From Deltaproteobacteria bacterium (GTDB taxonomy: Bacteria; Desulfobacterota; JADFXK01): DNA of 42,387 bases. The position numbers and the translations under genes are program-made. The stretch covers positions 9,537-51,923 of the forward strand of contig JADFXK010000001.1 in NCBI GenBank assembly GCA_015233625.1, written 5' to 3'. The notes below the pieces were generated by a model. That model ran no database searches, had not been told where the DNA came from, and was given only the letters and a program-made list of their open reading frames with translations. Positions 8,043 through 42,387 of the stretch are shown piece after piece; the stretch's first letter is position 1, and each line of letters begins with the position of its first letter.

Positions 8043-8254
8043 GACTGAGTATTAGTTACCGGTGACTCCAATATGTTCCTCAGGGAGGCTCATGAAAAGA
8101 TTTTTGAGTGGCCGACCAGACCGGAGGAGGGGCCTGGTCAGCCGTGGTGCAGGGATAAGAAAGAACGGGAAGGGTGGGACGATGATCAAAAGATTAAATC
8201 GCCATAGCCTCGTTGGAAAGGTTGCGGCGGTTTAAAGGATCGCCTCCGGGTGGA

Positions 8255-8737: not shown

Positions 8738-8964
8738 GATTGCATTCCTTTCTTTTAAGTAAAAACAAGGTCTTGAATACCTAACTTAGTCAAGGTCAAG
8801 ACCGGTTGCTTGCCCTTGCAAGTATAGTCGTCGGTTCATGCTAAAAGGTTACTCGAAAAAAAAATAAAACAGCCGGGAACCTTCTCGACGATTTCAACAG
8901 ATTGCTCACCCCCGCGACCCGGCCACAATACCAGATCAACTCACGGTGTTTAACCAGGACTGCC

Positions 8965-9030
8965 GCTCTTCCCAGGAATGGCTATAGTCTTTATGACTTG
9001 GGTGGAAACGTTTGGGGGTGGTTGCGGAAC
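8965..9030 (+). pseudogene. Remnant of a formylglycine-generating-enzyme (SUMF1) domain gene
   Basis: The translation LPRNGYSLYDLGGNVWGW matches the FGE hallmark NxxGLYDMxGNVWEW, but no full-length ORF surrounds it. Boundaries are approximate. Confidence 0.55.
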
Positions 9031-9186
9031 CGGGACGATAGTGGTTGGGATGGTAAGCGGGGCTGCCGGTGGAGATACCCGGATGAATTCGGTGTGGCCC
9101 TAATCCGGCCATAGTCCCAAGGCCGGGAAACACCGTCTCCTGCTAACGGACGAATTTCGACGCAGGCGAGACCTGCGCCGGAGTTG

Positions 9187-9393
9187 TTATTCAGCCACTG
9201 GGAAATTGATCTCATTCAATGTTGCTTTGATCTTATCCAAAGAAGCCGGGGCGTCCCACTCCACGGTGACGGTTTTCGTTCCAGGGTCACCCTCCACCTT
9301 GGCCACACCAGGCATCTCACTCAATTCCCGCTTGATACTCATCACGCAATGACCACAGTTGATTTTGGGGATGGAAAATGTTTTTGACTCCAT
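9187..9393 (-). CDS. copZ: CopZ-like heavy-metal-associated (HMA) chaperone
   Basis: 68 aa with an INCGHC (CxxC) motif and AGGAG RBS. Confidence 0.88.
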   Translation of the reverse strand: MESKTFSIPKINCGHCVMSIKRELSEMPGVAKVEGDPGTKTVTVEWDAPASLDKIKATLNEINFPVAE

Positions 9394-9521
9394 GGTTTTC
9401 TCCTGTTAATTAGTTGCTGGTTCCTGATTGCTCGGGGCTCGGTGCCGGTTGCCGGTTATTTGTTCAATACGCTGGAATTTATGAACAACCTTAAACAAGC
9501 AATCAGCATCAAGCAAATACT

Positions 9522-27578: not shown

Positions 27579-30371
27579 ATGGACTATAAAGACACGCTCA
27601 ATCTTCCCCAAACCAGCTTTCCCATGAAAGCCAATCTGACCAAAAACGAGCCGGAACAGCTCAAGGAATGGGCCGAAACTGATCTATATCATCAGATCCG
27701 GCGAAGCTCGAAGGGAAGACCGCCATATATTTTGCACGACGGCCCTCCTTACGCCAACGGCCACATCCATATGGGCACCGCCTTCAATAAGGTGATCAAA
27801 GACTTCATCGTCAAATCCCGGCAAATGATGGGCTTTGACGCAGCTTACGTCCCCGGCTGGGATTGCCACGGGTTGCCCATCGAGCATGAGGTCGATAAGA
27901 GATTAGGCGCCAAAAAGGCCGAGGTCTCGGTCGTCGAGAAACGGCGGATGTGCCGAGAATATGCCGAAAAGTTCATCGACATCCAGCGGGAGGAATTCAA
28001 ACGGCTGGGTGTGCTCGGTGATTGGAACGACCCTTATCTGACCATGAAATATTCCTACCAGGCCGTGATCATGCGGGAGTTCGGCAAATTCGCCCTATCC
28101 GGCAGCGTCATGCAAAGCAAGAAACCGATCTACTGGTGTTCCTCCTGTCAGACGGCCCTGGCCGAGGCGGAAGTGGAGTACGATAACCATACTTCGCCCT
28201 CCATCTACGTCAAATTTCCCATGATCTCCGATGTCTCCGACCTCATTCCGGGCGTCGACGCCAACAGCCGGGTGTTCGTGGTCATCTGGACGACCACACC
28301 CTGGACTATTCCAGCCAACCTGGCCGTGGCCCTGCACCCCGACCTGGAGTACGTAGCGGTGCGGGTCAAAGACGACATCCTGATCCTGGCCCAGGGATTA
28401 CTGGAGCAGTTCATGACCATTCTGGGCCAGACCGATTACCAGATAGTGGCCACGATTAATCCCCGAGCCATGGAGGGCCGCAAAGCCCGACACCCCCTGT
28501 ACGACCGGGAGTCATTGGTGGTCCTGGCCCCGTATGTGACCCTGGAAGCCGGGACCGGTTGTGTGCATACCGCCCCAGGGCACGGCCGGGAAGACTACGA
28601 AACCGGGCTGCATTACGGCCTGGAGGTCTACTCGCCGGTCAATGACCAGGGTTGCTTCACTCCTGAAGTGGAATTCTTCGCCGGTCAGTTTGTCTTCGCG
28701 GCCAATAAATCGGTCATCCAGAAGCTGGCCGAGGTGGGCGCTTTGCTGGCCGAGAAATCCATTGACCACTCCTACCCCCATTGTTGGCGTTGCAAGAATC
28801 CGGTCATCTTCCGGGCCACGGAACAATGGTTCATCTCCATGGACAAGACTGGCCTGCGTCAAAAGGCCCTGGCGGAAATCAACAAAGTGACCTGGACCCC
28901 GGCCTGGGGCCGCGACCGGATCTACAGCATGATCGAAAACCGGCCCGACTGGTGTATCTCCCGGCAACGAGCCTGGGGCATTCCCATCATTGTCTTCTGG
29001 TGCCAGGATTGCGGCGCATATTTGATCACCCAGGAGACCATAGACCATATCTCCGCGATGGTCGAGAAGGAGAGCGCTGATATCTGGTATTCTAAAACAC
29101 CGGCCGAGTTATTGCCTCCGGGCACCGTCTGTCAGCAGTGCGGGTCAGCCCACTTAGAAAAAGAGACGGACATCCTGGATGTCTGGTTTGATTCCGGGGT
29201 CAGCTTTGCTGCGTGTGTGGAAGCCAGGGAGGACTTGCGGTTCCCGGCCGACCTGTACTTAGAAGGCAGCGACCAGCACCGGGGTTGGTTCCACTCTTCC
29301 CTCTTGGCCTCGGTGGGGACCAGAGGCGTGGCTCCCTATAAGCACGTCCTGACCCACGGCTTCGTGGTTGATGGCAAAGGCCATAAGATGTCAAAATCTC
29401 GGGGAAATGTTATCGCTCCTGACGACATCATCAAGAAGAATGGGGCTGAAATTCTGAGATTGTGGGTCGTGGCCGAAGACTACCGGGAGGACATTCGGTT
29501 GTCGGGGGAGATCCTGTCGCGGTTGACCGACTCTTATCGCCGCATCCGCAATACCGCCCGCTTCCTGCTGGGCAACCTGAGTGATTTCAATCCGGCCACG
29601 GATGCCGTGGCCCCGGCCGACATGGACGAGATCGACCTGTGGGCTCTGGATCGGCTGCAACGGTTGACCGAAAAGGTTATAGCGGCATACCAGGACTTTG
29701 AATTTCATCTGGTCTTCCACTCCATCTATAATTTTTGCGTCACCGATATGAGCGCCTTTTACCTCGACGTGCTTAAGGATCGGATGTACACCTTCAACCG
29801 GACGGCCCGACCCAGGCGCTCGGGACAAACGGTGATGTACCGGGTGCTGGATGCCTTGACCCGCTTGATGGCTCCGGTGTTATCCTTCACTTCCGAGGAG
29901 ATCTGGAAGTATCTGCCGGCGGATCCCAATCGGGAAAAGAGCGTCCATCTGGCCGGATTCCCTAGTGTTGACCCGGCCCTGAAGAATGCCGAACTGGCTG
30001 AGCGCTGGACCACTTTCTTGAGTGTCCGGAGCGAAGTGACCAAGGCTTTGGAAATCGCCCGGAAAAATAAAGACATCGGGCACTCCCTGGATGCCGCGGT
30101 AACACTTCATGCGACCGGAACGCTGTTCGAGGCGCTGCAACCCTTCGCGGCCAAGATGCGGGATCTGTTCATCGTCTCCAGTGCCCGACTCACGGCCGAA
30201 CCGGCCCCGGAAGGCGCCTATAAAAGTGACCTGCTCACCGATTTCGGCGTCCAGGTGACCCAGGCTGCCGGCCTGAAGTGCGCCCGCTGCTGGGTCAAGG
30301 ACGAGCAGGTCGGCACCTATCCGGACCATCCCGAAATCTGCCCCCGGTGCCATGAAGCCTTAACTAGCTGA
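27579..30371 (+). CDS. ileS: Isoleucine--tRNA ligase (type 1)
   Basis: [54 protein letters not shown] and a C-terminal CxxC..CxxC zinc site. Confidence 0.99.
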
Positions 30372-30407
30372 TCAAAATGCCGCATCAGTTTATCAGGTCG
30401 AGGAAGG

Positions 30408-30731
30408 ATGATGAATAAAACCATATGGCTCTCTTTCGATATCGCGATTAGGGGTGATTTAGAAGGGCTCTATGCCTGGTTGGACTCACATGGCGCCAAA
30501 GAGTGTGGCACCAGCCTGGCCGTCCTCAAGTATCCTGATACTGGTAACCTCATTGAGGACCTAAAAAAAGACCTGGAAGAGCATGTGACTCTTGAAAAGA
30601 ATGACCGAGTTTATGTGACATATCAGAACCCTGATGGTAAGGTTATCGGTAAATTTATCTTTGGCAAACGCAAAGGAGACCCCTGGAAAGGGTACGGCCC
30701 GCAAGGTACAGATGAAGATGACAGCGATTAG
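30408..30731 (+). CDS. Hypothetical protein, possible Cas2/VapD-like fold, putative partner of the PIN protein
   Basis: 107 aa with GAGGAAGG RBS. The N-terminal strand IWLSFD followed by a helix resembles the hhhxYD start of Cas2/VapD-like proteins (inference). Acidic C-terminal tail. Confidence 0.65.
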   Translation: MMNKTIWLSFDIAIRGDLEGLYAWLDSHGAKECGTSLAVLKYPDTGNLIEDLKKDLEEHVTLEKNDRVYVTYQNPDGKVIGKFIFGKRKGDPWKGYGPQGTDEDDSD

Positions 30732-31152
30732 CTTTCCTTTCAGAGTCCTGGTCGACACAAGTTTCTGGATCGCCCTTTATGACACCAAAGATCGGTGGCA
30801 TAGCCAAGCGGTTGACCGGGAGGGAGTTTTGACTATATCAAATGTCATCCTGCCCTGGCCGATCCTCTACGAGACGTTGCGGACAAGGTTTGTCAAGAAC
30901 AGGCCATGGGGAATACACTTTCGGCTGCTCCTGGGTACTCTCCATGTATCCCATGTCTGCGATACGCCTTACCGGCAACGCGCCTTTGATGACACGGTGA
31001 CCGATTCCAACGTCCGTCGAGGTATCAGCATGATTGACATGTTGATCAGGCTGATGCTGCAAGATAAGAATCTGGGGATAACTCACCTGCTGACATTCAA
31101 CGTGAAAGATTTTGAAGATGTTTGTCGTGAGAGACGGATCGAACTGGTGTAG
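30712..31152 (+). CDS. PIN-domain (VapC-like) nuclease
   Basis: VLVDTSFWIAL..D..H, ILYETL, GISMID and LLTFNVKDF are typical PIN acidic motifs. Likely start is ATG 30712 (or 30718), overlapping the upstream ORF. Confidence 0.85.
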   Translation: MKMTAISFPFRVLVDTSFWIALYDTKDRWHSQAVDREGVLTISNVILPWPILYETLRTRFVKNRPWGIHFRLLLGTLHVSHVCDTPYRQRAFDDTVTDSNVRRGISMIDMLIRLMLQDKNLGITHLLTFNVKDFEDVCRERRIELV

Positions 31153-31201
31153 CCGCCCCAAAGCAAGAGCTAAAGCTGACGATTGACCAAAGGAAGACTA
31201 A

Positions 31202-31687
31202 TTGACTGAATCTTTAAAAAAATACTTAATCCTGATATACGTCGCTGTGCCTGTCCTTATTTTGGATCAGGTGACCAAGGCGATCATTCTTCGGAAGTTG
31301 ACCTTGCACCAGAGCCTGGAGGTGATTCCGGGTTTCTTCAATATTTGCTATGTCCGGAACAAGGGTGCGGCCTTCGGCGTTCTGAATAATCTTTCACCAT
31401 CTTTAACCCGCTATTTATTTATCGCCGTCGGGATCTTGGCCGTGGTGGTCATCGCCTATCTGGTCAATCAAATCAAAGAGGACGGCCGAGGGATGGTGAT
31501 CGCCTTGGGATTGGTCCTGGGCGGGGCGGTGGGCAATAATCTAATCGATCGGGTCAGATGGGGGGAAGTCATCGATTTCCTAGACGTCTACGTCAAGTCC
31601 TATCACTGGCCGGTATTTAATGTCGCTGACTCCGCCATTAGCGTCGGGGCAATTCTTTTGGCCTATCAGATCATCAGGAGGATTTAA
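31202..31687 (+). CDS. lspA: Lipoprotein signal peptidase
   Basis: LDQVTK, NKGAAFG, GAVGNNLIDR, VIDFLD and WPVFNVADSAI motifs, downstream of ileS. Confidence 0.97.
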   Translation: MTESLKKYLILIYVAVPVLILDQVTKAIILRKLTLHQSLEVIPGFFNICYVRNKGAAFGVLNNLSPSLTRYLFIAVGILAVVVIAYLVNQIKEDGRGMVIALGLVLGGAVGNNLIDRVRWGEVIDFLDVYVKSYHWPVFNVADSAISVGAILLAYQIIRRI

Positions 31688-31689
31688 TC

Positions 31690-32475
31690 ATGTTCCCGAC
31701 CATTGTCCGGCTGGGTCCTTTGGCCATCCACACTTACGGTGTTCTTATCGCCACGGCTTTTCTGGCCGGCGTGGGCCTGGCCATGCGGGAAGCCCGGCGG
31801 TTGGGCCAGGACCCGACCAAGGTCATGGACCTGTCTCTATATATCGTCATCTCCGCCATTGTTGGTTCCCGCTTACTCTATGTCCTGCTTAAATTTGATT
31901 ACTATATCAAAAAGCCCCTAAATATCTTTATGATTTGGGAAGGCGGGCTGGTCTTTTACGGTGGTTTGATAGGTGCCTTGATCGTGGGTCTGTGGTACAT
32001 GCGGCGGCATGGGCTGAATATGTGGCAGACCTGCGATATCTTTGCTCCGTCTCTGCCGCTGGGCCAGGCCATTGGCCGGCTGGGTTGTTTTTCGGCGGGA
32101 TGTTGCTATGGCAGCCCCACCAACCTCCCCTGGGCCGTGACCTTCACCAATCCCGAGACCTTGGCCTCACCCCTGGGCGTGCCGATCCATCCCACCCAGT
32201 TGTATTCTTCGGCCATTGGTTTGGTGATTTTCCTCATTCTAATGATCATGCGGAAACACAAAAAGTTCGACGGCCAGTTGATCTGGGTCTATGTCGTCTT
32301 GTCGGGAATAGGACGTTTCTTCGACGAATTCTGCCGGGCTGATTTCCGCGGTCCGGAAGTCTTCGGCGTCATTTCCACCACCCAGGCGATCAGCATTGTC
32401 AGCGTCATAGTCGGCGTGGTCATGCTCATCATCTTAGGCAAGAAGCACCAGTTGGCACCTAGGCCCAACCCGTGA
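31690..32475 (+). CDS. lgt: Prolipoprotein diacylglyceryl transferase
   Basis: IWEGGLVFYGG, GQAIGRLGCF..GCCYG, HPTQLY and RFFDEFCR motifs. Confidence 0.97.
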   Translation: MFPTIVRLGPLAIHTYGVLIATAFLAGVGLAMREARRLGQDPTKVMDLSLYIVISAIVGSRLLYVLLKFDYYIKKPLNIFMIWEGGLVFYGGLIGALIVGLWYMRRHGLNMWQTCDIFAPSLPLGQAIGRLGCFSAGCCYGSPTNLPWAVTFTNPETLASPLGVPIHPTQLYSSAIGLVIFLILMIMRKHKKFDGQLIWVYVVLSGIGRFFDEFCRADFRGPEVFGVISTTQAISIVSVIVGVVMLIILGKKHQLAPRPNP

Positions 32476-32491
32476 AACTAACCACCTAAGC

Positions 32492-32545
32492 AAAAAACAC
32501 GACGCAGAGGTTTTCAGAGTTTCTCGAAGACCTCTGCGTTTTTTT
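32492..32545. terminator. Bidirectional intrinsic terminator between lgt and pirin
   Basis: A-run, then ACGCAGAGGTTTTC ... GAAGACCTCTGCGT stem, then T-run, between convergent genes. Confidence 0.75.
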
Positions 32546-32600
32546 ATCCAGAAGACTCTGTGATGCCGTGTTCCAGTCCGGTACAGCACCTCGTTGGCCG

Positions 32601-33347
32601 TTATCTCCGCATCCCCCGAAGCGTTTCTTCGCTGTAGCCCCACCCCTTGCACGACGGGACGTCGATGAGAATGAAATCAGCATCTTTGTAAGCTTCAAAA
32701 TTCAAGGGTGCCTCGGTATCGATTCGGGCCTGCCCGCCTTCCTCAACCTGCCGGCCATTGATGGCTAACATCCCCTTGGTCAGGTAGACGAAGATCCGAC
32801 GCCCGCGGGTGGCCTCGAAGGACAGCTCCTGGTCCTTATCCAGGTCGGCCCGGTAAATAGTCGCGTCTGCGTGTAACGTAACGGTATCCGGAATGCCCCG
32901 CCCGGAAGCCACCGGGAAAAGTGTGTTCATCCATAACACTGGCGCATATGTTTTTTGGTCATAGGTTGGCTGAAGTCCGGATTTGTCCGGGAAGATCCAG
33001 ATTTGATAGAAATGGACTGGATTATCGGCCAGATTGAATTCGGAATGGGTTAGCCCGGTCCCGGCTGACATACGTTGGACATCATTGGCCTGGATGACCG
33101 CCTGGTTGCCCATGCTGTCCTCATGCGTGATTTCGCCCTGGAGGACGATAGTGACGATCTCCATTTCCTGGTGGGGATGAGTCGGGAAGCCGGTTCCCGG
33201 GGCCACCACATCATCATTAAACACCCGCAAAGCGCCAAACTGGATGTTGTGCGGATCGAAATAGTTGGCGAATGAAAACAACCAGTAGGTCTTCAGCCAG
33301 CCGAAGTTGCTGAAATGGCGCTCCTCTTTCCTGATGATCTGAATCAT
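32601..33347 (-). CDS. Pirin family protein (YhhW-like)
   Basis: FSFANYFDP, FGALRVFNDD, GFPTHPH, HEDSMGN, MSAGTG.THSE and QIWI motifs. ATG 33347 follows AGGAGGAG. Confidence 0.95.
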   Translation of the reverse strand: MIQIIRKEERHFSNFGWLKTYWLFSFANYFDPHNIQFGALRVFNDDVVAPGTGFPTHPHQEMEIVTIVLQGEITHEDSMGNQAVIQANDVQRMSAGTGLTHSEFNLADNPVHFYQIWIFPDKSGLQPTYDQKTYAPVLWMNTLFPVASGRGIPDTVTLHADATIYRADLDKDQELSFEATRGRRIFVYLTKGMLAINGRQVEEGGQARIDTEAPLNFEAYKDADFILIDVPSCKGWGYSEETLRGMRR

Positions 33348-33357
33348 ATCTCTCCTC

Positions 33358-35199
33358 CTACAAGGCGCAGGGGCAACCGGCCGACCAGAAACGCCCGTCT
33401 GAACCCATGATGACCAGATGGGCATGATTGCCGTCGGGATGCAGGTACCCACAATCGCCGTGCGTGTGCTTGGGCGGGGCGGAGTTGGAATTGTCGTAGC
33501 CTCCGTATCGGGCCACGGGAGACCAGTCCGGGCTGACCGGCGGCATCGGCGGGGCTAGTTCGGAGAACTCTGCTGCGGCATACACGGGTTTTCCGCCTAA
33601 TATGGTCAGGACGCTCTCAATGCCGCGGATCTCATCTTCCTCGACAGCGAAATAATCCGCATTCAAGACGGCCAGGTCAGCCAGATAGCCACTCACCAGC
33701 CGGCCTTTGCGATGGTCATCCCGGCTGAACCAGGCGCTGCCGGAGGTGTACAGCCTCAAAGCTTCCTCGCGACTGAGTCGGGACTTCTTATCGCCGGTAA
33801 GGAGGGTCCCGCCCACGCCCTTGCCAGACACCAGCCACCACAGACAGGTCCAGGGATGATACGAGGCCACCCGAGTTCCGTCTGTTCCGGCCCCGACCGG
33901 CAGGCCCAGTTCCATCATTTTCCGGATTGGCGGTTTGGCCTCCACGGCGGCTCGTCCGTAGCGCCGGATGAAGTATTCCCCCTGGTAGGCCATCCGATGC
34001 TGCACGGCGATGCCTCCGCCCAGGTTCAGGATGCGTTCCATGTTTTGCGGGGTAATCGTTTCGGCGTGGTCGATGAACCAGCGCAGATCATCGATGGGCG
34101 TGTCCCGGTGCACCCTCTCGAATAGATCCAGAAAACGGCCGATGGATTCATTGTAAGTGGCATGGATCCGCCAGGGCCATCGGGCTTCCGCCAGTTTCCG
34201 GATCACCTGTTCCAGTTCGATGTCCATAACCGGCCGGAGTTCGGGGCGAGGCTGCAAAAAATTCTCGAAATCGGCCGCACTCCACACCAGATTCTCGCCG
34301 GCCCCGTTGACCCGGAGCAGGTCGTCGCCGTCACCGGGATGGGTCAGGCCCAGCCACCGGGTGTAATCCTCCGCTTCGGTCCCGGATTTCTGGGCGAACA
34401 GGCTGTAGGCGATCCGGACAGTCAGGTCCCCCGCGTTGGCCAGTTGGCGGATGACCGCATAGTCTTCCGGGTAGTTCTGACCGCCCCCACCCGCATCTGA
34501 GGCGCTGGTGATGCCGAACCGGTTTAGTTCCCTCATGAAATGGCGCGTGGAATTCAACTGGTCCGGGAAGTTCAACTTGGGGGCGGTGGCGATGGCCGAA
34601 TAGAGGATCAGGGCATTGGGTTCGGCGATGAGCAGACCGGTGGGTTGGCCGCGGGCGTCCCGGGCGATCACGCCGCCTGGGGGATTGGGAGTGGTTTCAT
34701 CAAAGCTCAGGGCCCGTAATGCGGCCCGGTTAAGCAGGGCGCAATCGTACAGGTGCAGGACAAAAACGGGAGTGTCCGGAGCGGCCGCGTTGATCTCTTC
34801 CAGGGTCGGCATCCGGCCTTCGGCAAACTGCAGTTCACTCCAGCCGCCGATAACCCGGACCCACTGGGGCGGCGGAGTCCGCTGGGCCTGTTCCTGGAGC
34901 CGACGCATGGCCTCGGCGATCCGGGGCACGCCATCCCACCGCAGTTCCAGGTTGTAAAACAGCCCGGCCCGGATGACGTGCAGGTGGGAGTCGTTGAGCC
35001 CGGGGATCACCCGGCGGCGTCGAAGGTCAATCTGCCGGGTCCCGGCATCACCCAGAGCCAGGATGGTCCGATCATCACCCCCGGCCGTGACCAGTCCGTC
35101 TTTAACGGCCAGGGCGGTGACTTCCGGCTGCCGCGGATCATTGGTGGTGATCCGGCCGTTGTACAGAATCAATTCCGGGGCCGGGTTGGGGCCGGTCAT
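33358..35199 (-). CDS. Amidohydrolase (YtcJ / amidohydro_3 family)
   Basis: PGLNDSHLH, RIHATY, DHAE, GAGTDGTRV and LADLAVL motifs, with a His/Cys-rich tail. Confidence 0.93.
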   Translation of the reverse strand: MTGPNPAPELILYNGRITTNDPRQPEVTALAVKDGLVTAGGDDRTILALGDAGTRQIDLRRRRVIPGLNDSHLHVIRAGLFYNLELRWDGVPRIAEAMRRLQEQAQRTPPPQWVRVIGGWSELQFAEGRMPTLEEINAAAPDTPVFVLHLYDCALLNRAALRALSFDETTPNPPGGVIARDARGQPTGLLIAEPNALILYSAIATAPKLNFPDQLNSTRHFMRELNRFGITSASDAGGGGQNYPEDYAVIRQLANAGDLTVRIAYSLFAQKSGTEAEDYTRWLGLTHPGDGDDLLRVNGAGENLVWSAADFENFLQPRPELRPVMDIELEQVIRKLAEARWPWRIHATYNESIGRFLDLFERVHRDTPIDDLRWFIDHAETITPQNMERILNLGGGIAVQHRMAYQGEYFIRRYGRAAVEAKPPIRKMMELGLPVGAGTDGTRVASYHPWTCLWWLVSGKGVGGTLLTGDKKSRLSREEALRLYTSGSAWFSRDDHRKGRLVSGYLADLAVLNADYFAVEEDEIRGIESVLTILGGKPVYAAAEFSELAPPMPPVSPDWSPVARYGGYDNSNSAPPKHTHGDCGYLHPDGNHAHLVIMGSDGRFWSAGCPCAL

Positions 35200-35231
35200 A
35201 TCGTTCTCTCCCTTTCTGATTTCCTCATCCG

Positions 35232-35486
35232 GTTTGCGTTCGGCGAGTTCGCTGGGCGATCAGGCAACTGCGGTTAGCAAACCAAGACTTTATCCGCAGA
35301 TTACTCAGATTTTCGCAGATTAAGAAAATGCAAAATGATAGTGTCAGAAGGCTTGCATCCAGGCCGCGGTCGGCCAAAGTTCAGCAAATGATCGCAAAGT
35401 CTGTAGTCTCTTTAATCTGCGTTCATCTGCGTAATCTGCGGATACATTTTTTATTTCCCGATTTATAGGGCCCGTCAACCTTAGGT
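35232..35486. mobile_element. MITE-like element, copy 3
   Basis: The left 60 bp align without gaps to copy 1 (GTTCGGCGAGTTCGCTGGGCGATC... vs GTTCGGTGATTTCACTAGGCGATT...). It has the same palindromic core and the right end CCCGTCAACCTTAGGT. Confidence 0.7.
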
Positions 35487-35493
35487 TTTTACA

Positions 35494-36174
35494 CTATTTC
35501 TTCACCACATGCGGATTTTGGGCGGCCTGGGGAGCCTTGTGGACCATGGAATAGGCATACTCGATGCCGCAGCCGTAAGCGCCCGCATGTTCCCGGAACA
35601 GTTGCATGAGCGCATTATAGTGATCATGGTTGGCCCAGTCCCGCTGGAACTCCAGCACCGTGGCCACGGTGGTCATAGGCACGGCCCCCGCCTGGACACA
35701 CCGCCGGATAGCCGCATCATGAGCGACGTGGGAGGTGGCCCCACAGGCATCCTCCACGATGTAGACGTTGTAGCCTTCCTTGAGCATAGCCAGGGTGGGC
35801 CAGGTGACGCAGACCTCCGTCCACAGCCCGGCCACGACGATGTTCTTCTTCCCCGTGGCTTTGACGGCTTCCCGGAACGCGGGCGAGTCCCACGAATTCA
35901 TGCTGGAGCGCTCAATGGGCTGCCGGCCCGGAAGAGCATCCATCAGTTGCGGCCAGATGTAGCCGCTAAACGATTCCGTCTCCACCGCGGTCAAGATGGT
36001 GGGGATGCCGAACTCCCTGGCCCCCTTGGCCAGCAGAACCACATTGTTCATCAGAAGCAGCCGATCGATGTTGGCCACACCGAAAATCATCTGCGGTTGA
36101 TGATCAATGAAGACCACCGCGCAGTTGTCCTTGGTAATAAGGCCACTATCAGTGCCGGGTAGGATGTTCGCCAT
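35494..36174 (-). CDS. YcaC-like isochorismatase-family hydrolase
   Basis: FIDHQPQM, ERSSMNSW, AGLWTEVC (catalytic Cys) and EFQRDW. ATG 36174 follows AAGGAGG. Confidence 0.93.
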   Translation of the reverse strand: MANILPGTDSGLITKDNCAVVFIDHQPQMIFGVANIDRLLLMNNVVLLAKGAREFGIPTILTAVETESFSGYIWPQLMDALPGRQPIERSSMNSWDSPAFREAVKATGKKNIVVAGLWTEVCVTWPTLAMLKEGYNVYIVEDACGATSHVAHDAAIRRCVQAGAVPMTTVATVLEFQRDWANHDHYNALMQLFREHAGAYGCGIEYAYSMVHKAPQAAQNPHVVKK

Positions 36175-36253
36175 GGGACTTCCTCCTTTATCCGTTGTGT
36201 TATCCAACATCAAAACTCTTCTGTGTCGCAATCGACAGCCCCGCCGCAGCCGA

Positions 36254-36461
36254 GGACCATGATTTAATCCGCAGATTGCGCCGATTGGCGCAGATTAAAA
36301 GCAATGCAAAACGCTTGTGCCCGAAGGCTTGCATCCAGGCCTCGGTCGGCCAAAGTTCAGAAAATGATCGCCTGGTCTGTGGTCTCTTTAATCTGCGTTC
36401 ATCTGCGTAATCTGCGGATACCTTTTTGGCCCCCAAATTACCAGACTCGTCGAACTCAGGT
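36254..36461. mobile_element. MITE-like element, copy 4 (left end eroded)
   Basis: The core and spacer are highly similar to copy 3 (GAAGGCTTGCATCCAGGCC.CGGTCGGCCAAAGTTCAG). The right end is clean: ACTCGTCGAACTCAGGT. Confidence 0.75.
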
Positions 36462-36647
36462 TATTCATAGGAAATCAGGTTGCGGCAGGCAGGAAGGGAT
36501 GCCCTCGACCAAACGCGGCTCAAATTCCAAGCATGATATGAGCATTCACTCGGTTTGTAAATAGGGCGGGGGATTCATTTCTCTGGTGATTTTCCCGATT
36601 GGGCATGGATTTTTCCCGGTGGGGTTCATATGGGGGGATGGGTTCGA

Positions 36648-37364
36648 CTAGATGCTGCTCTCTCGTGGTTTAAGAATCATCTTCACTTCGACAACTCGCT
36701 GCTCTCGCGTGGATTGTCCAACAATGCGTACTCGCTGTTCCTCAGTAAACATTTCCAGGACCGTATCAAATTGCTCGACCGGAAAGCTACATTGTCGTTC
36801 TGGTTCACCAATAATCTCTCTCAAAGTAAATGTATATTTATCGCGATCAAGCTCTCTGATGATTCCTTCTTTATCAAATAGGGAAAATTCATCATCCGCT
36901 GAGGTGACTTGTTTTATAATCTCCCCTGGTATATTCTCTTCTTTTATCTGTTGGCCTGTGGCCTTAATCGGCAGTACCGGTTCCAGGTGCGGATAAAGCA
37001 GCACGTCTGCCTCTGGAAGTGCGTCTTCCGGTAAATCTTTTATTTGAATCTGCCAAGACTTCCTGACGCCCCAGTCGGTAGTCGTAATATCAACGAGCCA
37101 CATTATAGGTTGGTCTAATGCCTCCCGAATGGAAATAGTCCCTAACTTCAATTTGTCCACTATTGATGGGCGAGTCGGAGCCACCACGTATCGCAGTATA
37201 TCATCCTGATCATCGCTCAAGTAGGCGATAGCCAAACCGTTCAACGGAGTTTTAAAAGTAAAAATCAACGGTTCGTTGTATTCATACAGCATTTCTTCCG
37301 GAGGAAATAAGTTTCCGATGAGTTCCACCGGGTATTCAGGAGCGCTTACATCCCAAAGAGCCAT
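36648..37364 (-). CDS. Hypothetical protein with DUF6575-like N-terminal domain
   Basis: 238 aa. LYEYNEPLIF...SIREAL...DALPEADVLL resembles DUF6575 (from recollection). The C-terminal GIIRELDRD..TFTLR segment is predicted beta-rich. It starts 2 bp after the upstream ORF. Confidence 0.7.
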   Translation of the reverse strand: MALWDVSAPEYPVELIGNLFPPEEMLYEYNEPLIFTFKTPLNGLAIAYLSDDQDDILRYVVAPTRPSIVDKLKLGTISIREALDQPIMWLVDITTTDWGVRKSWQIQIKDLPEDALPEADVLLYPHLEPVLPIKATGQQIKEENIPGEIIKQVTSADDEFSLFDKEGIIRELDRDKYTFTLREIIGEPERQCSFPVEQFDTVLEMFTEEQRVRIVGQSTREQRVVEVKMILKPRESSI

Positions 37365-37366
37365 GG

Positions 37367-37747
37367 TTATCCCCTGAATATTTCTTGAAAAGTTAAATGG
37401 CTATATTTCCAAAAAGTGGCATGACTCGGTACAGGTCCCTCGGTCATTTTAATCTTACCATGCTCCGGCTTGAGGTCAGCCACAATTATATACCTTTTTC
37501 TACGTGGAAACAACCGGCGTATTTCCACCGCATCTTCGACTGTCGTAGATACAGATAATCCACATCGTTGACACAGGTCCTGTCCCGGTTTGACTGGAAC
37601 ATTCATTTCGTGGAAAGTCTCAATATCGTGCTCACCGGGAGGATTTTCCTTTGAATGCCCATAAGCCGTAATATTTGCATCAACAGCGTCAGCCGGAGGA
37701 CAATTGGCCGGCCAGTCGTCTGGAAATCGCAATTCATCTTCTGGCAT
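37367..37747 (-). CDS. Hypothetical protein, possible ADP-ribosyltransferase/RES-like fold
   Basis: 126 aa with GGAG RBS and the pattern FP..WP..CPP..A, C..CGLSV, G.I and SHATFW. The fold is inferred. Confidence 0.65.
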   Translation of the reverse strand: MPEDELRFPDDWPANCPPADAVDANITAYGHSKENPPGEHDIETFHEMNVPVKPGQDLCQRCGLSVSTTVEDAVEIRRLFPRRKRYIIVADLKPEHGKIKMTEGPVPSHATFWKYSHLTFQEIFRG

Positions 37748-38095
37748 TCGGTTCTCTCCGGTTCGTTTTCACATTATCCTCGTAAAAAATTGATTGATTT
37801 CCTTACGCTATATTTTTTTGAAAGTCAAGAAAGCAGTCGGCCGCCGGTCCCACGACCGGGAGACGAAGTTGCGTGGACCATGCCAGCCGAGCATCTTCTA
37901 GCACCTTGTGATCTTGGCGTTGAGCGAAAAGCCCGCTTCGATAAGCGAAAGGCACCGGCCTTGAACCATGCCTTCAAGGAATGATTCAGGAAAATGTCCA
38001 AGGTAATCTGTCAACGGAGGCTCATTTTGAACGAAACATTGAGCCACGTCGCACATAGTCGCGCAAGAAGCTGAACGGCCGTTCGCTGCGTCGGG

Positions 38096-38560
38096 TTAAG
38101 TCCTTTGATGCGCGTAATGTTTCATTGCCCCTCTGGCTAGCATGCCAACAAGCAAGCATACTACTATGGACCATATAGCTTCTGCAAATATTAAAATGGG
38201 GTATTCAAAGAAATCCTGAGGAGTTATTAAGAAAAAAGTAATTTTCCGAAAAGATTCTCCCCCGATAGCAAATAAAAGCAAGTGGGCGATGACTCTTGCC
38301 TTGGCCGTGCAAGCAATGAGTGCTGCTGGTATTCCAAATGAGATTGACCTAAACAAAAAATGATAAAATAGAACCCGAGGATGGATTACGATTTCATACT
38401 CTCGGGCAACTCTAAAACTATCTTGAATTCCAGTCACGTTTCGAAATTCCACTACGACCGACCAGAATATGGTGTTTTCAGCCGCCGCCAATAATAAGGA
38501 AGCAAGCAAGAACACTATCAATGCTATCAGTAAGCAGTCTATGTTTATTTTTTTCATCAC
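38096..38560 (-). CDS. AT-rich hypothetical membrane protein (about 4 TM)
   Basis: 154-aa hydrophobic ORF. Its stop codon lies inside ACTTAAC (RYYYAAC). Confidence 0.6.
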   Translation of the reverse strand: MMKKINIDCLLIALIVFLLASLLLAAAENTIFWSVVVEFRNVTGIQDSFRVAREYEIVIHPRVLFYHFLFRSISFGIPAALIACTAKARVIAHLLLFAIGGESFRKITFFLITPQDFFEYPILIFAEAIWSIVVCLLVGMLARGAMKHYAHQRT

Positions 38561-38570
38561 ATATCACGAG

Positions 38571-38638
38571 CTTCACCAATCCGGAGACCCTGGCCTCACT
38601 ACTGGGCGTGCCGATCCATCCCACTCAATTATATTCTT
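38571..38638 (+). repeat. Diverged 68-bp copy of an internal lgt segment (32142-32209)
   Basis: 61/68 identity by manual alignment. It translates FTNPETLASLLGVPIHPTQLYS against lgt FTNPETLASPLGVPIHPTQLYS. Confidence 0.9.
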
Positions 38639-38721
38639 TGACGATTGACTTATATGTTTGATAAGGTAGTTTTTGGCATGCCTTAATTTGAAGAGACCCA
38701 CACTTGGAATTTTGCATAAGG

Positions 38722-38793
38722 CTCGGACGCAAATAGCTCAGGGGATGGCAAGAAGTGCAGCTTTTTGCCATCCCCTGGAACGCAATGTTAGAT
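38722..38793 (-). other. attC site (cassette with DUF900-like hydrolase)
   Basis: Minus strand ATCTAAC-ATTGC-GTTCCAGG-GGATGGCAA...TTGCCATCC-CCTGAGC-N7-GTCCGAG, starting 2 bp after the stop codon. R'' is perfect and R' is degenerate. Confidence 0.75.
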
Positions 38794-38795
38794 AT

Positions 38796-39785
38796 CTATT
38801 TAGTGCGTACCAGTTTGAGTTTCCCATCTGATCCCGCTACTCGGGTAGGAATAACTGATCTATCGAGATCACCTTTTATAGTTTCAAAGAGATCGCGTGC
38901 AAATAGCTTATTGCCAATATGCCAGGAGTGATCGAAAGAGCCTAAGACATTCGTTTGGTCTGCCTTTTTGATCTCTTCATTTGAATCAAGTACCCTGAAG
39001 TAATCTGTGCAATCGATATTTACACCCTTTGTCGGAGCGTCGGCGGGCAATCCTACACGCCCAACTCGTGGTGCCAGACCTAGGCGCTTTGCATTGGATA
39101 GCTTCAACACCGAGTCACACAAGTTTGAGTAGTTCGTCAACCTGGTACAGTGCCTATACAAAGAATCTGTTGAGCTATTTCCATTAGTTAAAGAGGAAGA
39201 GGAGATATCGCCACCAATGAACGCAACCTGGCTGACAGTCCATGAGTTATTTGGTAGACGGGCGTCGTCGGCGTCGTCAAAGGCCTCTCGGATTACGTAT
39301 GCACCGGTTGAATGGCCGAGCAAATGGATATTGATGGTGCAATCCGGAGCTTGTCGAGCTGATAGTGCCAAAATTCCATCGGACACAAGTTGCATAGCCG
39401 TTTTCTTCGCATCGTGTCTGTCTTCCAGGTAGTTGATAGCCCAGTCATCGCTTGGCCAGTCGAATGACAAAATTTCACCTTTAAAACCTACGGAAGTCAA
39501 ATCACTCTTGAGCTGTGCATGGCGATCCATCACGGTTTTCTGGTTGTTGTTGTACCCATGCACAAATACGAGCAAATCACCTCGATCTCGCCCGCCGTTA
39601 CGAGAATCTTTGCCCCACGTTGCAGCCGTGCGTAGTTTCTTAAACCATTGATTAGTGTTCTTCACTGCCTGCTTTGGTGATGGAAGGTCGCCTTCCGGAA
39701 CAATCAAGAATAAGGATGGTCCGGGTTCGGCTATAAAGACACCACCTTCCACGGCACGGGCGCACATGACAAATTGGTCAGCCAT
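38796..39785 (-). CDS. Alpha/beta hydrolase (DUF900-like), integron cassette ORF
   Basis: LVFVHGYNN, FDWPS, HLLGHSTG (nucleophile elbow), DSVLKLS and DHSWH motifs, with AGGAG RBS. Confidence 0.9.
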   Translation of the reverse strand: MADQFVMCARAVEGGVFIAEPGPSLFLIVPEGDLPSPKQAVKNTNQWFKKLRTAATWGKDSRNGGRDRGDLLVFVHGYNNNQKTVMDRHAQLKSDLTSVGFKGEILSFDWPSDDWAINYLEDRHDAKKTAMQLVSDGILALSARQAPDCTINIHLLGHSTGAYVIREAFDDADDARLPNNSWTVSQVAFIGGDISSSSLTNGNSSTDSLYRHCTRLTNYSNLCDSVLKLSNAKRLGLAPRVGRVGLPADAPTKGVNIDCTDYFRVLDSNEEIKKADQTNVLGSFDHSWHIGNKLFARDLFETIKGDLDRSVIPTRVAGSDGKLKLVRTK

Positions 39786-39807
39786 TCTATTCTCCTATAG
39801 TGGTAAA

Positions 39808-39895
39808 GCCTAACGCCCGCCACCAGCCACTGCCGGAAGCCGAACCGACGCAGGAGCATAGGCTGTTCCCAGTCGGCTGCAAACCCTTGTCGGCT
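39808..39895 (-). other. attC site (cassette with GH19 enzyme)
   Basis: Minus strand AGCCGAC-AAGGG-TTTGCAGC-CGACTGGGAA...TTCCGGCAGTG-GCTGGTG-GCGGGC-GTTAGGC. R' is a perfect GTTRRRY and R'' is degenerate. Confidence 0.75.
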
Positions 39896-39952
39896 AGGAC
39901 GTTAGAACAGACATTGGCAAGGTCTAAGGTGAGTTTGCCTCCTGGGTTGGTA

Positions 39953-40846
39953 TTATGACTGCGCTGAATTCTTTACTCCCTTGATTGTATCAAGTCCTCG
40001 CTTGATGGCATCTTCGGTGACCGGGCTGGCGATACCATCAGCAACAATGCCCACAGCAGCTTGAAAGTTCTTCACGGCCTGGCGCGTGGCTGGGCCATAG
40101 CGACCGTCAACGACGAGTTTAGGCACTGCCCCAAGGTCGTTGAGGGCTTTCTGAAGCCTCTCCACATTGTCGTCTTCGACGCTGGTTTGCCAAGGCTCCG
40201 CATCGGCGTTCAGCAACGGCCACACCATGTTGAACCATGCTTCCCGTTCGTCGAGTCCTGTCAAGCCACCGTTGATGCGCTTGGTGATGGTGATGATATC
40301 GTTCTTGTCCGCAAATGTGTTAAGGTTGTTTTCAGTCCACTCACCTACGGCTGGCTTCAAGGCGTGTGCAGGGTAAGTCACCAAATCGGGGTTGCCTACG
40401 AAATTAACTCCACAGAGGGTACCCATGTGCTGGTGGTTTCGTCGTCCAGTGGTTTGGAACATCCCGTTACCACGATAGAGAAATCCATCGCCTCGCTGTG
40501 TATTGCCGAGATCGTGCGCCTTGGACGGGTTGCCGAGGCCATAAACCCTCTCGGCGATGTCTTCCGGGTGGTGGGCGAGTGTCTCTGCCTCATCAGCCGT
40601 CACCGCAGCGCTATGATGGGCGCCAAATATCTTGAGGAGTCGCTGTGCAGAGTAGTTCATATTCTCGCGCAGGATCGTGAAGCCACCCGTCTCGTGCAAG
40701 GCCTGAGCCAGGAAATGCGTCATGCGCAGCGGTGTCGTGATCCTGTGTTCCTTAAACAGTGAGTCGCCTTGGCGGATTGCCTCAAGGTAATTGTCGAGCG
40801 CGTTGGTAGCCGTACGTCTGACCACGTTGATAGTATTGATCGTCAT
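39953..40846 (-). CDS. Glycoside hydrolase family 19 (lysozyme/chitinase-like) with C-terminal peptidoglycan-binding domain, cassette ORF
   Basis: HFLAQALHETGG, LGN...DGFLYRGNG.FQTTGR.N, ITKRINGG and LQKALN..G...VDG.YGPAT..AV..FQ motifs. ATG 40846 follows GGAGGT. Confidence 0.92.
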   Translation of the reverse strand: MTINTINVVRRTATNALDNYLEAIRQGDSLFKEHRITTPLRMTHFLAQALHETGGFTILRENMNYSAQRLLKIFGAHHSAAVTADEAETLAHHPEDIAERVYGLGNPSKAHDLGNTQRGDGFLYRGNGMFQTTGRRNHQHMGTLCGVNFVGNPDLVTYPAHALKPAVGEWTENNLNTFADKNDIITITKRINGGLTGLDEREAWFNMVWPLLNADAEPWQTSVEDDNVERLQKALNDLGAVPKLVVDGRYGPATRQAVKNFQAAVGIVADGIASPVTEDAIKRGLDTIKGVKNSAQS

Positions 40847-40907
40847 GAAATCTACCTCCATTTTTGTCTGTGTTCGGTTGGAGAAGAAATCTGGACACCC
40901 CCGCGAA

Positions 40908-41011
40908 GTCGAACGTCGCGGGTAACTCCTTAACGACCATGGGCATGGGCTTGCAATAAAGGACTCCGAATACGCCCTATGGTTGCTCAACGGGTTAACT
41001 CGCTGTCAGGT
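40908..41011 (-). other. attC site (cassette with Macro-SEFIR/TIR fusion)
   Basis: Minus strand ACCTGAC-AGCGA-GTTAAC...ACCATAGGGCGT...ATGCCCATGGT...GTTACC-CGCGAC-GTTCGAC, an imperfect palindrome starting 9 bp after the stop codon. Confidence 0.72.
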
Positions 41012-41020
41012 CATTATGTT

Positions 41021-42016
41021 CTATACCCAAACAGGTGGCTTCCCGACCGGCGGTGCAAGATCGATGTTATAGAGTTCCTTAAGAAGTCTTGTCCAGATTT
41101 CTCTACCATCATCGGCAGGGGCACAATGAAAGCAGTATTTTGTCTTTAAGTACTTGGGAACACCTTTCTCGAAATCCTGTTCTCTGATGATAGCCAGATA
41201 TTTGTTGTTGCCAGCCGGAAGATTCAACAGATCACCTTGAATAATCATCGTCTCCCATCCAACTCCGCCCGAGCGGCCGTCAGCCTTCGCAGCATATTGT
41301 GCATCTGAGACAATTACCACTCTGTCGGCCATTGCCAATTCGTTCGTCATCCATTGGGGCAGATCCATACCCTCGCGCAAGTGCCATTGGTCGAGACGTG
41401 CTTCGATGCCGTTGTCCCTTAGGTATGTCGCAAGCCCTGCCACCCAGCCCTTCTGCTCTTGGGTTGCACCAGTGTAGCTTATGAATACCCGAATCGGTTC
41501 TTTGACCTGTGGCTGCGGGACCAGGCCGGGGCCCGATGGTTTGACGTAGTTACTGAGGCGACGAAAAACATTCTCATGCAAGATGCTGATGGTTAGGATT
41601 GCATCCGGATGCGCTTTACTTTTAAAGCCCTCTGCAATTGCGTCAACCACATGCTCACTTCGGAGCCCGCCCGCACCTGCACCTAGGAGTGGAGCCGATA
41701 CAGCTCTGACTGATGAGTAATCTTGTGTGGCCGAGCCAAGCCGCGTTCCTATCAACCGAATAGCTGCGGTGGTAGAATGCATATTTATTACAGAGGCCGC
41801 AAATGCGACGTATTGAGCGATGTTCTCGCCACCTGTGAAGGGCATAATATCTACCTGGCCCAGCTCATATGCCCTTTTTGGGTCCGGTATCCTGTACTCT
41901 TGAAGTGCTGTAGCAACAAAACTCGTTATCGTCCCGCCCGTTGAGCAGGGCAATACAACTAAATCGGATGGCCCGTCAAATATGTTACCAAGTCGCAACT
42001 TAACAAGAGCAGCCAT
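41021..42016 (-). CDS. Macro-domain + SEFIR/TIR-domain fusion protein, cassette ORF
   Basis: The N-terminal half has LGNIF...DLVVLP...APLLGAGAGG (macro). The C-terminal half has VFISY, WV..LA..LR.NGI...LDQW.L..G.DL..WM and KADGRSGGVGWE (SEFIR/TIR with Glu retained). ATG 42016 follows AAGGAGG. Confidence 0.88.
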   Translation of the reverse strand: MAALVKLRLGNIFDGPSDLVVLPCSTGGTITSFVATALQEYRIPDPKRAYELGQVDIMPFTGGENIAQYVAFAASVINMHSTTAAIRLIGTRLGSATQDYSSVRAVSAPLLGAGAGGLRSEHVVDAIAEGFKSKAHPDAILTISILHENVFRRLSNYVKPSGPGLVPQPQVKEPIRVFISYTGATQEQKGWVAGLATYLRDNGIEARLDQWHLREGMDLPQWMTNELAMADRVVIVSDAQYAAKADGRSGGVGWETMIIQGDLLNLPAGNNKYLAIIREQDFEKGVPKYLKTKYCFHCAPADDGREIWTRLLKELYNIDLAPPVGKPPVWV

Positions 42017-42063
42017 TGTTGAAATCCTCCTTACACATGACTTAGTCTCTACACGTTCTGGAG

Positions 42064-42320
42064 TCGTAACGTTCGACATGAACGGATTACACCGGCTTGG
42101 CCGTAGCGGTCGTTCGATGGCCCGATTTGGCAGTTCCGCTTACAGGTGCACCGGCCAATTTGTGTTGCCAACCTTTAGGAATCAGGTTGAGGCGGCTTCC
42201 AATTTCAGCAATGAAGTCTGTGAATGTGCGGCTTATCTGGTGAATGCCGTATTGAGTGTGATATACTACTCCAACTTAGGTTGTGACAGGCACGATTATT
42301 GCTTGCAAGCTGTGTTATAG
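42064..42320 (-). other. Probable long or degenerate attC site upstream of the Macro-TIR cassette
   Basis: The right arm CCGTTCATG-TCGAAC-GTTACGA is attC-like. A candidate left arm CTATAAC-ACAG-CTTGCAAG lies 14 bp after a minus-strand stop (42335-42337). The left boundary is uncertain. Confidence 0.4.
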
Positions 42321-42387
42321 ACAAAAACAATATCTCATATATCCTCTAAAAGCCATAGTCCGTTTCGGACTTTCAACTTATTGCTTT

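Follow-up and report, generated by a model that had tools for sequence, protein, structure and literature searches.

A possible one-gene NAD+-depleting immune protein: a divergent macro domain fused to a bacterial SEFIR domain in a variable hotspot of a deltaproteobacterial genome

Among the major themes of bacterial immunity is the depletion of NAD+ by domains of the TIR, SIR2 and SEFIR types. Macro domains are, to our knowledge, known in bacterial immunity only as the membrane receptor of type II Thoeris or as counter-defence enzymes of phages. Here, we describe a gene in which the two domain types are combined. It lies near one end of a 42,387-nt stretch of a Deltaproteobacteria bacterium genome (contig JADFXK010000001.1, positions 9,537 to 51,923), called the window in the following, and it encodes a protein of 331 amino acids with a divergent macro domain in its N-terminal half and a SEFIR domain in its C-terminal half. 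A remodelled macro pocket and a SEFIR domain are thus found within one small soluble protein that occurs in many phyla and has no conserved partner gene. We tentatively read it as a self-contained NAD+-depleting immune protein. The features at the locus are collected in Table 1.

The open reading frame (ORF) ends with the stop codon at 41021-41023 and has two possible starts, at 42079 (352 aa) and at 42016 (331 aa). The Met at 42016 is the common N-terminus of the 32 aligned homologs, and because the homologs begin there and an AAGGAGG sequence stands 9 nt upstream of it, 42016 is taken as the true start. The 352-aa version was considered and ruled out on the same two grounds. In the translation, the motif GNIF is found at residues 10-13, PLLGAGAGG at 109-117 and GGVGWE at 250-255. 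The AlphaFold2 (AF2) model, built with the 32 homologs, has a mean predicted local distance difference test score (pLDDT) of 83 and consists of two globular domains. The linker between them has a pLDDT below 50 at residues 162-171, contains 5 prolines within residues 156-175, and varies in length among the homologs. No transmembrane (TM) segment is predicted in the protein, the maximum Kyte-Doolittle value over 19 residues being 1.41. A preliminary description of this DNA, made from the letters alone, had placed a single soluble polypeptide without TM segments and with a Pro-rich interdomain linker at 41021..42016. All of this stands: the ORF and the homolog starts agree on the coordinates, the 5 prolines in 20 residues lie in a part that is disordered in the model, and the hydropathy is low throughout.

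Table 1. Coordinates, in the window, of the macro-SEFIR gene, its parts and the features around it.
Feature	Position	Strand	Basis
Macro-SEFIR protein coding sequence, 331 aa	41021..42016	minus	ORF list, translation, homolog starts
Divergent macro domain, residues 1-158	41543..42016	minus	AF2 model, structure matches, family profile
Pro-rich disordered interdomain linker, residues 159-174	41495..41542	minus	pLDDT, Pro count
Bacterial SEFIR (STIR-clan) domain, residues 175-331, with GGVGWETMII including Glu255	41024..41494	minus	Pfam, PADLOC, 5y8e
Shine-Dalgarno sequence AAGGAGG	42026-42032	minus	9 nt before the ATG at 42016, read from the sequence
Sigma-70-like promoter match TTGTCT-18-AATAAT	42295..42324	minus	weak: 3 sites against 2.2 expected (shuffles)
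Dispersed repeat at the contig end, 129 nt	42259..42387	.	84-88% identical copies
Endolysin-like gene (GH19-like + PG_binding_1)	39953..40861	minus	PHROG 181 5.2e-61, PG_binding_1 4.2e-14
DUF900 alpha/beta-hydrolase gene	38796-39785	minus	next downstream after the endolysin-like gene

We begin with the C-terminal half, which is the only part of the protein recognised by Pfam. Residues 176-296 match TIR_2 (9.9e-13) and SEFIR (1.9e-12, with 48.1 bits against a cut-off of 23), and the bSEFIR model of PADLOC (PDLC03957) matches residues 171-330 at 2.2e-50 and 170.7 bits, over profile positions 35-197 of 412 only. PHROG 11745 also matches the SEFIR half (5.8e-31). The B. cereus SEFIR structure 5y8e is found by sequence at 3.7e-21, with RSGGVGWETMII of the query aligned with RRGGVGTETMII of 5y8e, and the structural comparison of residues 174-330 gives Z 15.8 both for 5y8e and for the TIR domain of SPARTA (8ifl). 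Glu255 is invariant in 32/32 aligned homologs and is also present in the sequence of the B. cereus structure. The reading of the C-terminus as a SEFIR/TIR domain that keeps the Glu of GGVGWE, put forward in the preliminary description, is thus supported by Pfam, by 5y8e and by the conservation of this residue.

In the N-terminal half of the model, residues 3-158 adopt the three-layer alpha/beta/alpha fold of macro domains, as found both with Foldseek (E 1e-7 to 1e-6) and with VIA-align. The top structural match is TTHA0132 (2dx6), with Z 18.4 and an rmsd of 2.4 over 152 residues. Other macro matches are the VEEV nsP3 macro domain (3gqo, Z 16.8), DarG (5m3e, Z 16.4) and Af1521 (Z 16.1), and dozens of ADP-ribose-bound macro domains are at Z of at least 15.5. 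Searches with the single sequence of this half gave weak matches, to TTHA0132/2dx6 with E 0.17 and to the NCBIfam DarG model with E 0.19. A family profile of 28 diverse N-domain sequences finds 2dx6 with E 5.3e-7 over positions 2-152, and an alphavirus macro domain with 0.0027. Since the profile matches 2dx6 over the whole domain, the macro homology is visible also in sequence. The macro-type N-terminus that had been suggested from GNIF and PLLGAGAGG is confirmed by these structure and profile matches.

The domain is, at the same time, not a typical member of the superfamily. The Pfam Macro model leaves the query unmatched and matches only 5/28 family members, weakly (best 1e-3). The ThsA_Macro model likewise does not match the query and is weak in only 3/28 members. 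ThsA macro structures are absent among the 50 VIA-align entries listed, which does not exclude a similarity to them. The ESM Atlas gave sub-threshold matches only, to unnamed clusters at 0.88-0.89 and to one Macro cluster at 0.87. Because the query matches neither Pfam Macro nor ThsA_Macro, we assign the N-terminal domain to a divergent macro clade.

The family-profile alignment indicates how the pocket differs. Asp18 is aligned with the Asp of GDAIV in 2dx6, which we take to be the adenine N6 contact of macro domains. PLLGAGAGG is aligned with PLLGTGVGG of TTHA0132, and this second Gly loop, presumably the diphosphate-binding loop of macro domains, is therefore retained. In place of VNAAN of 2dx6 the query has VLPCS, such that L and S stand where NAAN has its two asparagines, and loop 1 lacks the Gly-rich character that it has in 2dx6. 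Five residues, Asp18, Pro23, Cys24, Gly112 and Gly116, are invariant in 28/28 family members of all architectures, and the identical columns are invariant in six proteins that carry the macro-like domain C-terminally. Judged from these alignments, the adenine/diphosphate site of the clade appears intact and the distal-ribose site remodelled. The loss of the NAAN asparagines suggests ligand binding rather than canonical hydrolysis.

Both folds are conserved in a large family. A word-indexed search gave 1160 homologous clusters at E <= 1e-3 among 5400 candidates. The best 120 of the 1160 have query coverages of 91-100% and identities of 52-100%, all carry SEFIR + TIR_2, and they are annotated just as 'TIR domain-containing' or 'hypothetical'. 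They come from Planctomycetes, Ignavibacteria, Cyanobacteria, Hyphomicrobiales, Myxococcota, Gemmatimonadota, Anaerolineales, Acidobacteria and Gammaproteobacteria. Scanning a single genome for each species yielded at least 56 loci, 53 of them with near-full-length matches at 35-58% identity, and proteins of Planctomycetota, Cyanobacteria, Zixibacteria, Acidobacteria and Proteobacteria share 50-58% identity with each other. The macro-SEFIR family is thus large, spread over many phyla, and unstudied. Homologs are also present in cultured non-pathogens, such as Marinicella sp. W31, Stieleria sp. JC731, Collimonas silvisoli and Bradyrhizobium tropiciagri. In an alphaproteobacterial metagenome-assembled genome (MAG; L040:8001-9052), the SEFIR half of the homolog is called as a separate 134-aa ORF, and this homolog is probably frameshifted or misassembled.

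The distribution is patchy. In 40 relatives, namely three genomes of the same genus (61-79% complete) and 37 of the same phylum, no full-length copy of the protein was found, and the same-genus genome G003 and the genome G025 have matches to the SEFIR half only. The three same-genus genomes (G001, G002 and G003) are 82-89% identical in DNA to the window up to the pirin gene (window 30000-33533). For G002 and G003 the match resumes at ca 36487-36643 and is followed by unrelated genes. In G003, the next gene in the hotspot encodes a 235-aa TIR protein (L150:5635-6339, TIR_2 6.4e-18), while no Pfam family is found for the hotspot ORFs of G001 and G002. From the comparison with these loci (L149, L150 and L151), the part of the window that follows the pirin gene, 33534-42387, is a hypervariable hotspot that differs between species. 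Since the gene lies in this variable hotspot and the full-length protein was not found in the 40 relatives, it can be classified by comparative sequence analysis as accessory and mobile.

We now turn our attention to the proteins in which the macro-like domain occurs. The N-terminal domain (170 aa) was searched against 1.84 billion representatives, with 362 proteins at E <= 1e-3, 202 at <= 1e-10 and 28 at <= 1e-30. Out of the 150 listed, 75 proteins, mostly of at least 230 aa, were chosen by hand for a Pfam scan, leaving out short fragments and several query-like proteins of 320-340 aa. A STIR-clan domain is present in 40/75: 22 have SEFIR + TIR_2, 14 have TIR only (among them two with an N-terminal TIR and one with Mrr_cat), and four have a CAP12/Pycsar-type TIR (CAP12-PCTIR_TIR), which is N-terminal to the macro-like domain. 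The remaining proteins carry only an EAD (EAD1, EAD5 or EAD7; 6/75), PNP_UDP_1 together with EAD7 (2/75), a KAP NTPase (3/75), or, in one case each, DUF4062, CHAT, Pkinase+GGDEF, PD40 and CarboxypepD_reg, and 19/75 show no Pfam domain. The macro-like domain is thus reused as a module: besides SEFIR, eight or more effector-type or adaptor domains are joined to it. When one domain stays the same and its effector-type partners change, this usually marks a sensor or regulatory module. DUF4062 has been renamed NIR NADase in a preprint (10.64898/2026.09.04.749371).

A metagenome scan aimed at the context of the CAP12-type TIR-macro proteins gave 80 loci, all of which match the macro part only. Most of them are macro-SEFIR/TIR proteins again, and the few forms with a C-terminal macro-like domain are on short contigs. 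Two further arrangements were observed. One is a 469-aa protein (L087:5749-7155, also L088 and L089) in which the macro-like domain, at residues 4-146, is fused to dCMP_cyt_deam_1 (4.8e-14). This dCMP/cytidine-deaminase partner is not in the representative set and comes from the metagenome scan. The other is a stand-alone macro-like gene of 202 aa (L058, 191-796) that overlaps by 4 nt with the gene of an SNase-HhH nuclease (796-1767). This gene pair may be a two-gene version consisting of a sensor and an effector.

The neighbours of the macro-SEFIR gene were analysed in 51 loci with longest-ORF calling, two further loci (L014 and L032) having been dropped for want of a focal ORF, and the families within +-4 genes were clustered by BLASTP. 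No neighbour is conserved in the 51 loci. The commonest family, which matches the ABC-ATPase-like 'mad3' models, is present in 4 loci and all others in at most 2. The gene stands alone, and the earlier statement that it has no partner gene is borne out. In 2/51 loci (L006 and L023), and also in the metagenome locus L065, the gene directly upstream on the same strand is of TIR type. At L006, from the complete genome of the cultured strain Marinicella sp. W31, three STIR-clan genes are found in a row (7421-10006): a ThsB-like TIR of 181 aa, the macro-SEFIR homolog, and a 299-aa protein with a TIR effector match, such that this locus is an island rich in TIR genes.

It is useful to compare the protein with systems that are already known. 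According to Millman et al. (10.1101/2022.05.11.491447), bSEFIR of Bacillus sp. NIO-1130 is a single protein that defends against phi29, its instances were chosen only with an N-terminal SEFIR, homologs are present in 460 genomes, and mutating a residue predicted for SEFIR-SEFIR interaction abolished defence. Osterman et al. (10.1101/2024.02.11.579819) describe SEFIR as a single-protein system that depletes NAD+, yielding ADP-ribose (ADPR) along with nicotinamide, which is also stated in the aRES preprint and in the NIR preprint (10.64898/2026.09.04.749371). The protein described here resembles bSEFIR in its homologous SEFIR domain (PADLOC 2.2e-50), in the GGVGxETMII motif that is shared with 5y8e, and in being a single gene without conserved partner. 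In contrast to the bSEFIR rule, its SEFIR domain is C-terminal (residues 171-330 of 331), and the C-terminal region of bSEFIR is absent, with an N-terminal macro domain instead. The preliminary description had not recognised a named system here. This needs to be qualified, as the bSEFIR model does match, whereas the architecture departs from the N-terminal SEFIR by which bSEFIR is defined. Automated profile tools will probably label the gene 'SEFIR' and overlook the different architecture.

For type II Thoeris, Shi et al. (PMC11204291) report that the macro domains of ThsA bind ADPR/IAD and form nucleotide-induced oligomers, and 10.64898/2025.12.03.692087 reports that His-ADPR activates the type II effector via its macro domain. 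The preliminary description had drawn a parallel to this system, with its TIR signal maker and separate TM-macro sensor, and this parallel is supported by the Thoeris literature: in both cases the NAD+ chemistry of the STIR clan goes together with a macro domain whose pocket is of the ADP-ribose type. The differences are that there is one polypeptide here, with no TM helices and no conserved ThsB gene, and that the macro domain is of another subfamily, as judged from the ThsA_Macro results above. The best match in both structure and sequence, TTHA0132 of Thermus thermophilus, is a stand-alone protein deposited as hypothetical. Its PLLGTGxGGL loop is nearly identical, but it keeps VNAAN and a Gly-rich loop 1 and is without SEFIR, whereas the macro-SEFIR family has VLPCS and a remodelled loop 1. 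The macro domain of DarG, from DarTG, is similar in fold (5m3e as above, and 5m3i with Z 16.1) and has the weak sequence match (E 0.19) in the Gly loop, but the NCBIfam DarG score is 10.9 bits against a cut-off of 250. Among the PADLOC matches of the macro-SEFIR protein and its +-2 neighbours there are no DarT or DarG models.

In TIR-SAVED, TIR-STING and the Pycsar TIR proteins, a nucleotide-binding domain is fused to an NADase that acts on oligomerisation, and the cyclase is encoded adjacent. The logic of the macro-SEFIR protein would be the same, and four of the macro-like proteins indeed carry the CAP12/Pycsar-type TIR. Unlike in those systems, no adjacent cyclase is conserved here, and the sensor fold is macro and not SAVED, STING or cNMP-binding. 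SEFIR NADase defence, Thoeris macro sensors and ligand-gated TIR effectors are thus known already. In the literature searched, preprint supplements aside, no description was found of a macro-SEFIR fusion, nor of the PCS-type macro clade and its partner network.

The reading that we prefer, though tentatively and with somewhat less than even confidence, is that a single gene encodes an immune protein which depletes NAD+, and that its macro domain, on binding an ADP-ribose-type ligand, gates the self-association of the SEFIR domain. The C-terminal SEFIR would be the effector which, by homology with bSEFIR, would self-associate and cleave NAD+ to ADP-ribose and nicotinamide, and the loss of NAD+ would starve the infecting phage. 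The macro domain would bind ADPR, a derivative of it, or an ADP-ribosylated molecule made in infection, and the bound ligand would control the assembly and activity of the SEFIR. The whole protein would be cytoplasmic and self-contained. We infer in this way the NADase activity, the ligand, the sign of the control (a switch-on or a brake) and the anti-phage role. A macro domain that responds to ADP-ribose or ADP-ribosylation by switching the NADase had been proposed at the outset, and the proposal fits with the pocket contacts predicted to be kept and with the swapped partners.

A number of observations weigh against this reading. Ligand sensors normally come with a dedicated signal maker, and none is conserved beside the gene (+-4 genes, 51 loci). 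The catalytic role of Glu255 is presumed from sequence, and the invariant Cys24, which replaces NAAN, could be a catalytic nucleophile instead of a binding residue. Fusions of the macro-like domain to EADs would, by analogy, place it in the 'effector' position of NTP-dependent conflict systems. PADLOC models match 28/171 of the +-2 neighbours (16/51 loci) at E <= 1e-5, where one match at L040 that was the focal gene's own SEFIR half has been excluded, compared to 17/148 control ORFs (Fisher p = 0.26). Strong matches (E <= 1e-20) number 16/171 vs 9/148 (p = 0.30), and TIR/SIR2-type neighbours 5/171 vs 0/148 (p = 0.064). The control was drawn from a single genome, that of the host: 148 ORFs, taken at random from nine random 20-kb regions, one of which happened to contain a type I restriction-modification (R-M) system. 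The criterion is unspecific, as housekeeping genes also trigger the ABC-ATPase, IscS and methyltransferase models. The enrichment in defence islands, which had been named earlier as a check, is thus not seen in this crude test. Phage collections gave no support, with relatives in 0/38 candidate stretches of IMG/VR and, among GenBank phages, six records that match the SEFIR half only, none with a coverage of 80% or more; some of the six are annotated 'SEFIR domain protein'.

The PADLOC-matching neighbours themselves include type II/IIG R-M (L003 and L017), SIR2 (L028 and L045), TIR (L006 and L023), CapH/CapP-like regulators (L042), SoFic (L047) and a DRT-type reverse transcriptase (L051). At L042 (9396-10557), a Clostridia MAG, matches to capH (3.3e-13), PDC-M69B (2.4e-29) and capP (7e-23) are found ca 450 nt downstream of the homolog. 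This is a single instance, which hints at DNA-damage-responsive control.

The possibility of Cys24 acting as a nucleophile leads to another option, in which the macro domain has an enzymatic activity of its own and processes or traps the SEFIR product, or removes ADP-ribose from phage-modified targets, making the protein a two-step NAD+-destroying effector. We consider this possible, if on the doubtful side, and the same holds for its variant in which ADP-ribose is converted or trapped such that phage NAD+-reconstitution enzymes could no longer reuse it. Pro23 and Cys24 are invariant beside the distal-ribose site in all architectures, the closest folds include the hydrolases DarG and YmdB and viral macro domains, and the EAD fusions can be seen as effector-EAD architectures. 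PMC7159879 lists macro among the enzymatic effector domains of NTP-dependent conflict systems that act on ADPr/NAD+. There is also a documented contest for such a function to be part of. The phage enzyme NARP1 rebuilds NAD+ from ADPR and nicotinamide, it is extended by a phage macro phosphatase, and defence and counter-defence over ADPR derivatives are described, all according to Osterman et al. and the aRES and NIR preprints. On the other hand, the canonical catalytic Asn of NAAN is absent, a Lys equivalent to the catalytic residue of DarG/TARG1 was not identified, and the query is, as described above, unmatched by Pfam Macro, with weak matches in a minority of the family. We have also considered a dispersed multi-protein system of which the protein would be one component, either as a Thoeris-like receptor/effector for a distant TIR or as a homotypic SEFIR adaptor. 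The TIR-type genes immediately upstream at L006, L023 and L065 would agree with this, but 49/51 loci lack an adjacent TIR gene and there is no conserved neighbour. As to the adaptor, where the SEFIR would, as in IL-17R/Act1, recruit the macro domain to a larger complex in the manner of the EAD-fused paralogs, the C-terminal partners do alternate between SEFIR/TIR and death-like EAD adaptors, and the mutation at the predicted SEFIR-SEFIR contact in bSEFIR abolished defence. The SEFIR here, however, keeps the motif of the defence-type bacterial SEFIRs, and we find both versions of the dispersed system improbable.

A role outside immunity, as a housekeeping or stress-signalling enzyme of NAD+/ADP-ribose metabolism, would be consistent with the lack of a significant enrichment of defence neighbours and with the absence of relatives in the phage collections searched. 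Against it stands a patchy distribution in which proteins of different phyla are 50-58% identical and no full-length protein was found in the 40 relatives. The hotspot in which the gene lies is variable and contains repeats, an endolysin-like gene and, in the sister genome, a TIR gene, and this also speaks against it, as do the typical immune effectors among the partners of the macro-like domain, and we therefore give this option very little weight.

Returning to the preferred reading of a macro-gated NADase, one can speculate on the role of the PCS-type macro-like domain in general. It might be a modular alarm sensor like SAVED, CARF and SLOG, but without a dedicated synthase, a view that we consider unlikely. 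It would respond to ADP-ribose-type molecules which arise only upon the breaking or transfer of NAD+ in infection, whether they come from other NADase defences, from phage ADP-ribosyltransferases or from the basal activity of its own SEFIR, and it would drive the oligomerisation of the fused effector (SEFIR, TIR, DUF4062/NIR, PNP, deaminase or caspase-like). The invariant Cys might trap the ligand covalently. If this were true, the macro-SEFIR protein would be a self-amplifying, product-triggered switch for NAD+ depletion, or a second-line amplifier of immunity. If the macro domain gates the NADase, it would represent a new sensor module, with ADP-ribose-type metabolites as danger signals that need no dedicated synthase. 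If it is an enzyme, the protein would be a defence that processes its own product, which would bear on the arms race over NAD+ reconstitution by phages.

Finally, we have considered the gene as an integron cassette with its own attC, as it had been described. What favours this is the hexamer GTTAAC, which lies 22-27 nt past the stop codon, and nothing else at the locus. A search on both strands for the R''/R' core pair, that is, RYYYAAC followed by GTTRRRY 40-150 nt later, found none at or beyond 40700, and the two pairs found in the whole window are both within ORFs (16144-16265 and 39059-39175). The folding energy of the 176-nt strand downstream of the stop codon is -19.1 kcal/mol, compared to -18.7 +- 2.9 kcal/mol for shuffled sequences (z = -0.14), which is no excess. 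An integrase domain was not found in any of the 34 window ORFs scanned, with the contig stopping 370 nt upstream of the gene, and the repeats found about the gene belong to a dispersed element that is specific to the genus and has dozens of copies in each genome, and are not attC. The cassette is thus hardly credible, and the integron reading is corrected by the absence of attC evidence at the locus in both the sequence search and the folding.

The repeats deserve a short description. The host assembly has 619 contigs and is 68% complete, and the contig ends on the upstream side of the macro-SEFIR gene. The repeat at this end recurs on four other contigs in G002 and G003, two of the genomes of the same genus, and it probably caused the assembly break. 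Another repeat, of ca 180-210 nt, has two copies in the window that are 81-90% identical over the stretches aligned (35279-35456 and 36256-36432, or ca 35235-35487 and 36253-36464 with wider limits). It contains internal inverted repeats and is present in dozens of copies per genome in the three same-genus genomes, the total matches being 57-66 per genome. From its sequence, it looks like a MITE/REP-like dispersed element of the host genus.

Between these two copies, downstream of the macro-SEFIR gene, lies a gene of the isochorismatase family, and three ORFs without family are located at 36648-38560. The five ORFs downstream of the macro-SEFIR gene have one weak PADLOC match (PD-T4-10_B, 3.2e-6). 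The GH19 match of the endolysin-like gene is weak, and this gene is not conserved beside the macro-SEFIR homologs. It could, together with the DUF900 gene, be what is left of a prophage, or the two could form a secreted-effector pair. The sole tRNA gene of the window is found far from this region, at 1721-1796.

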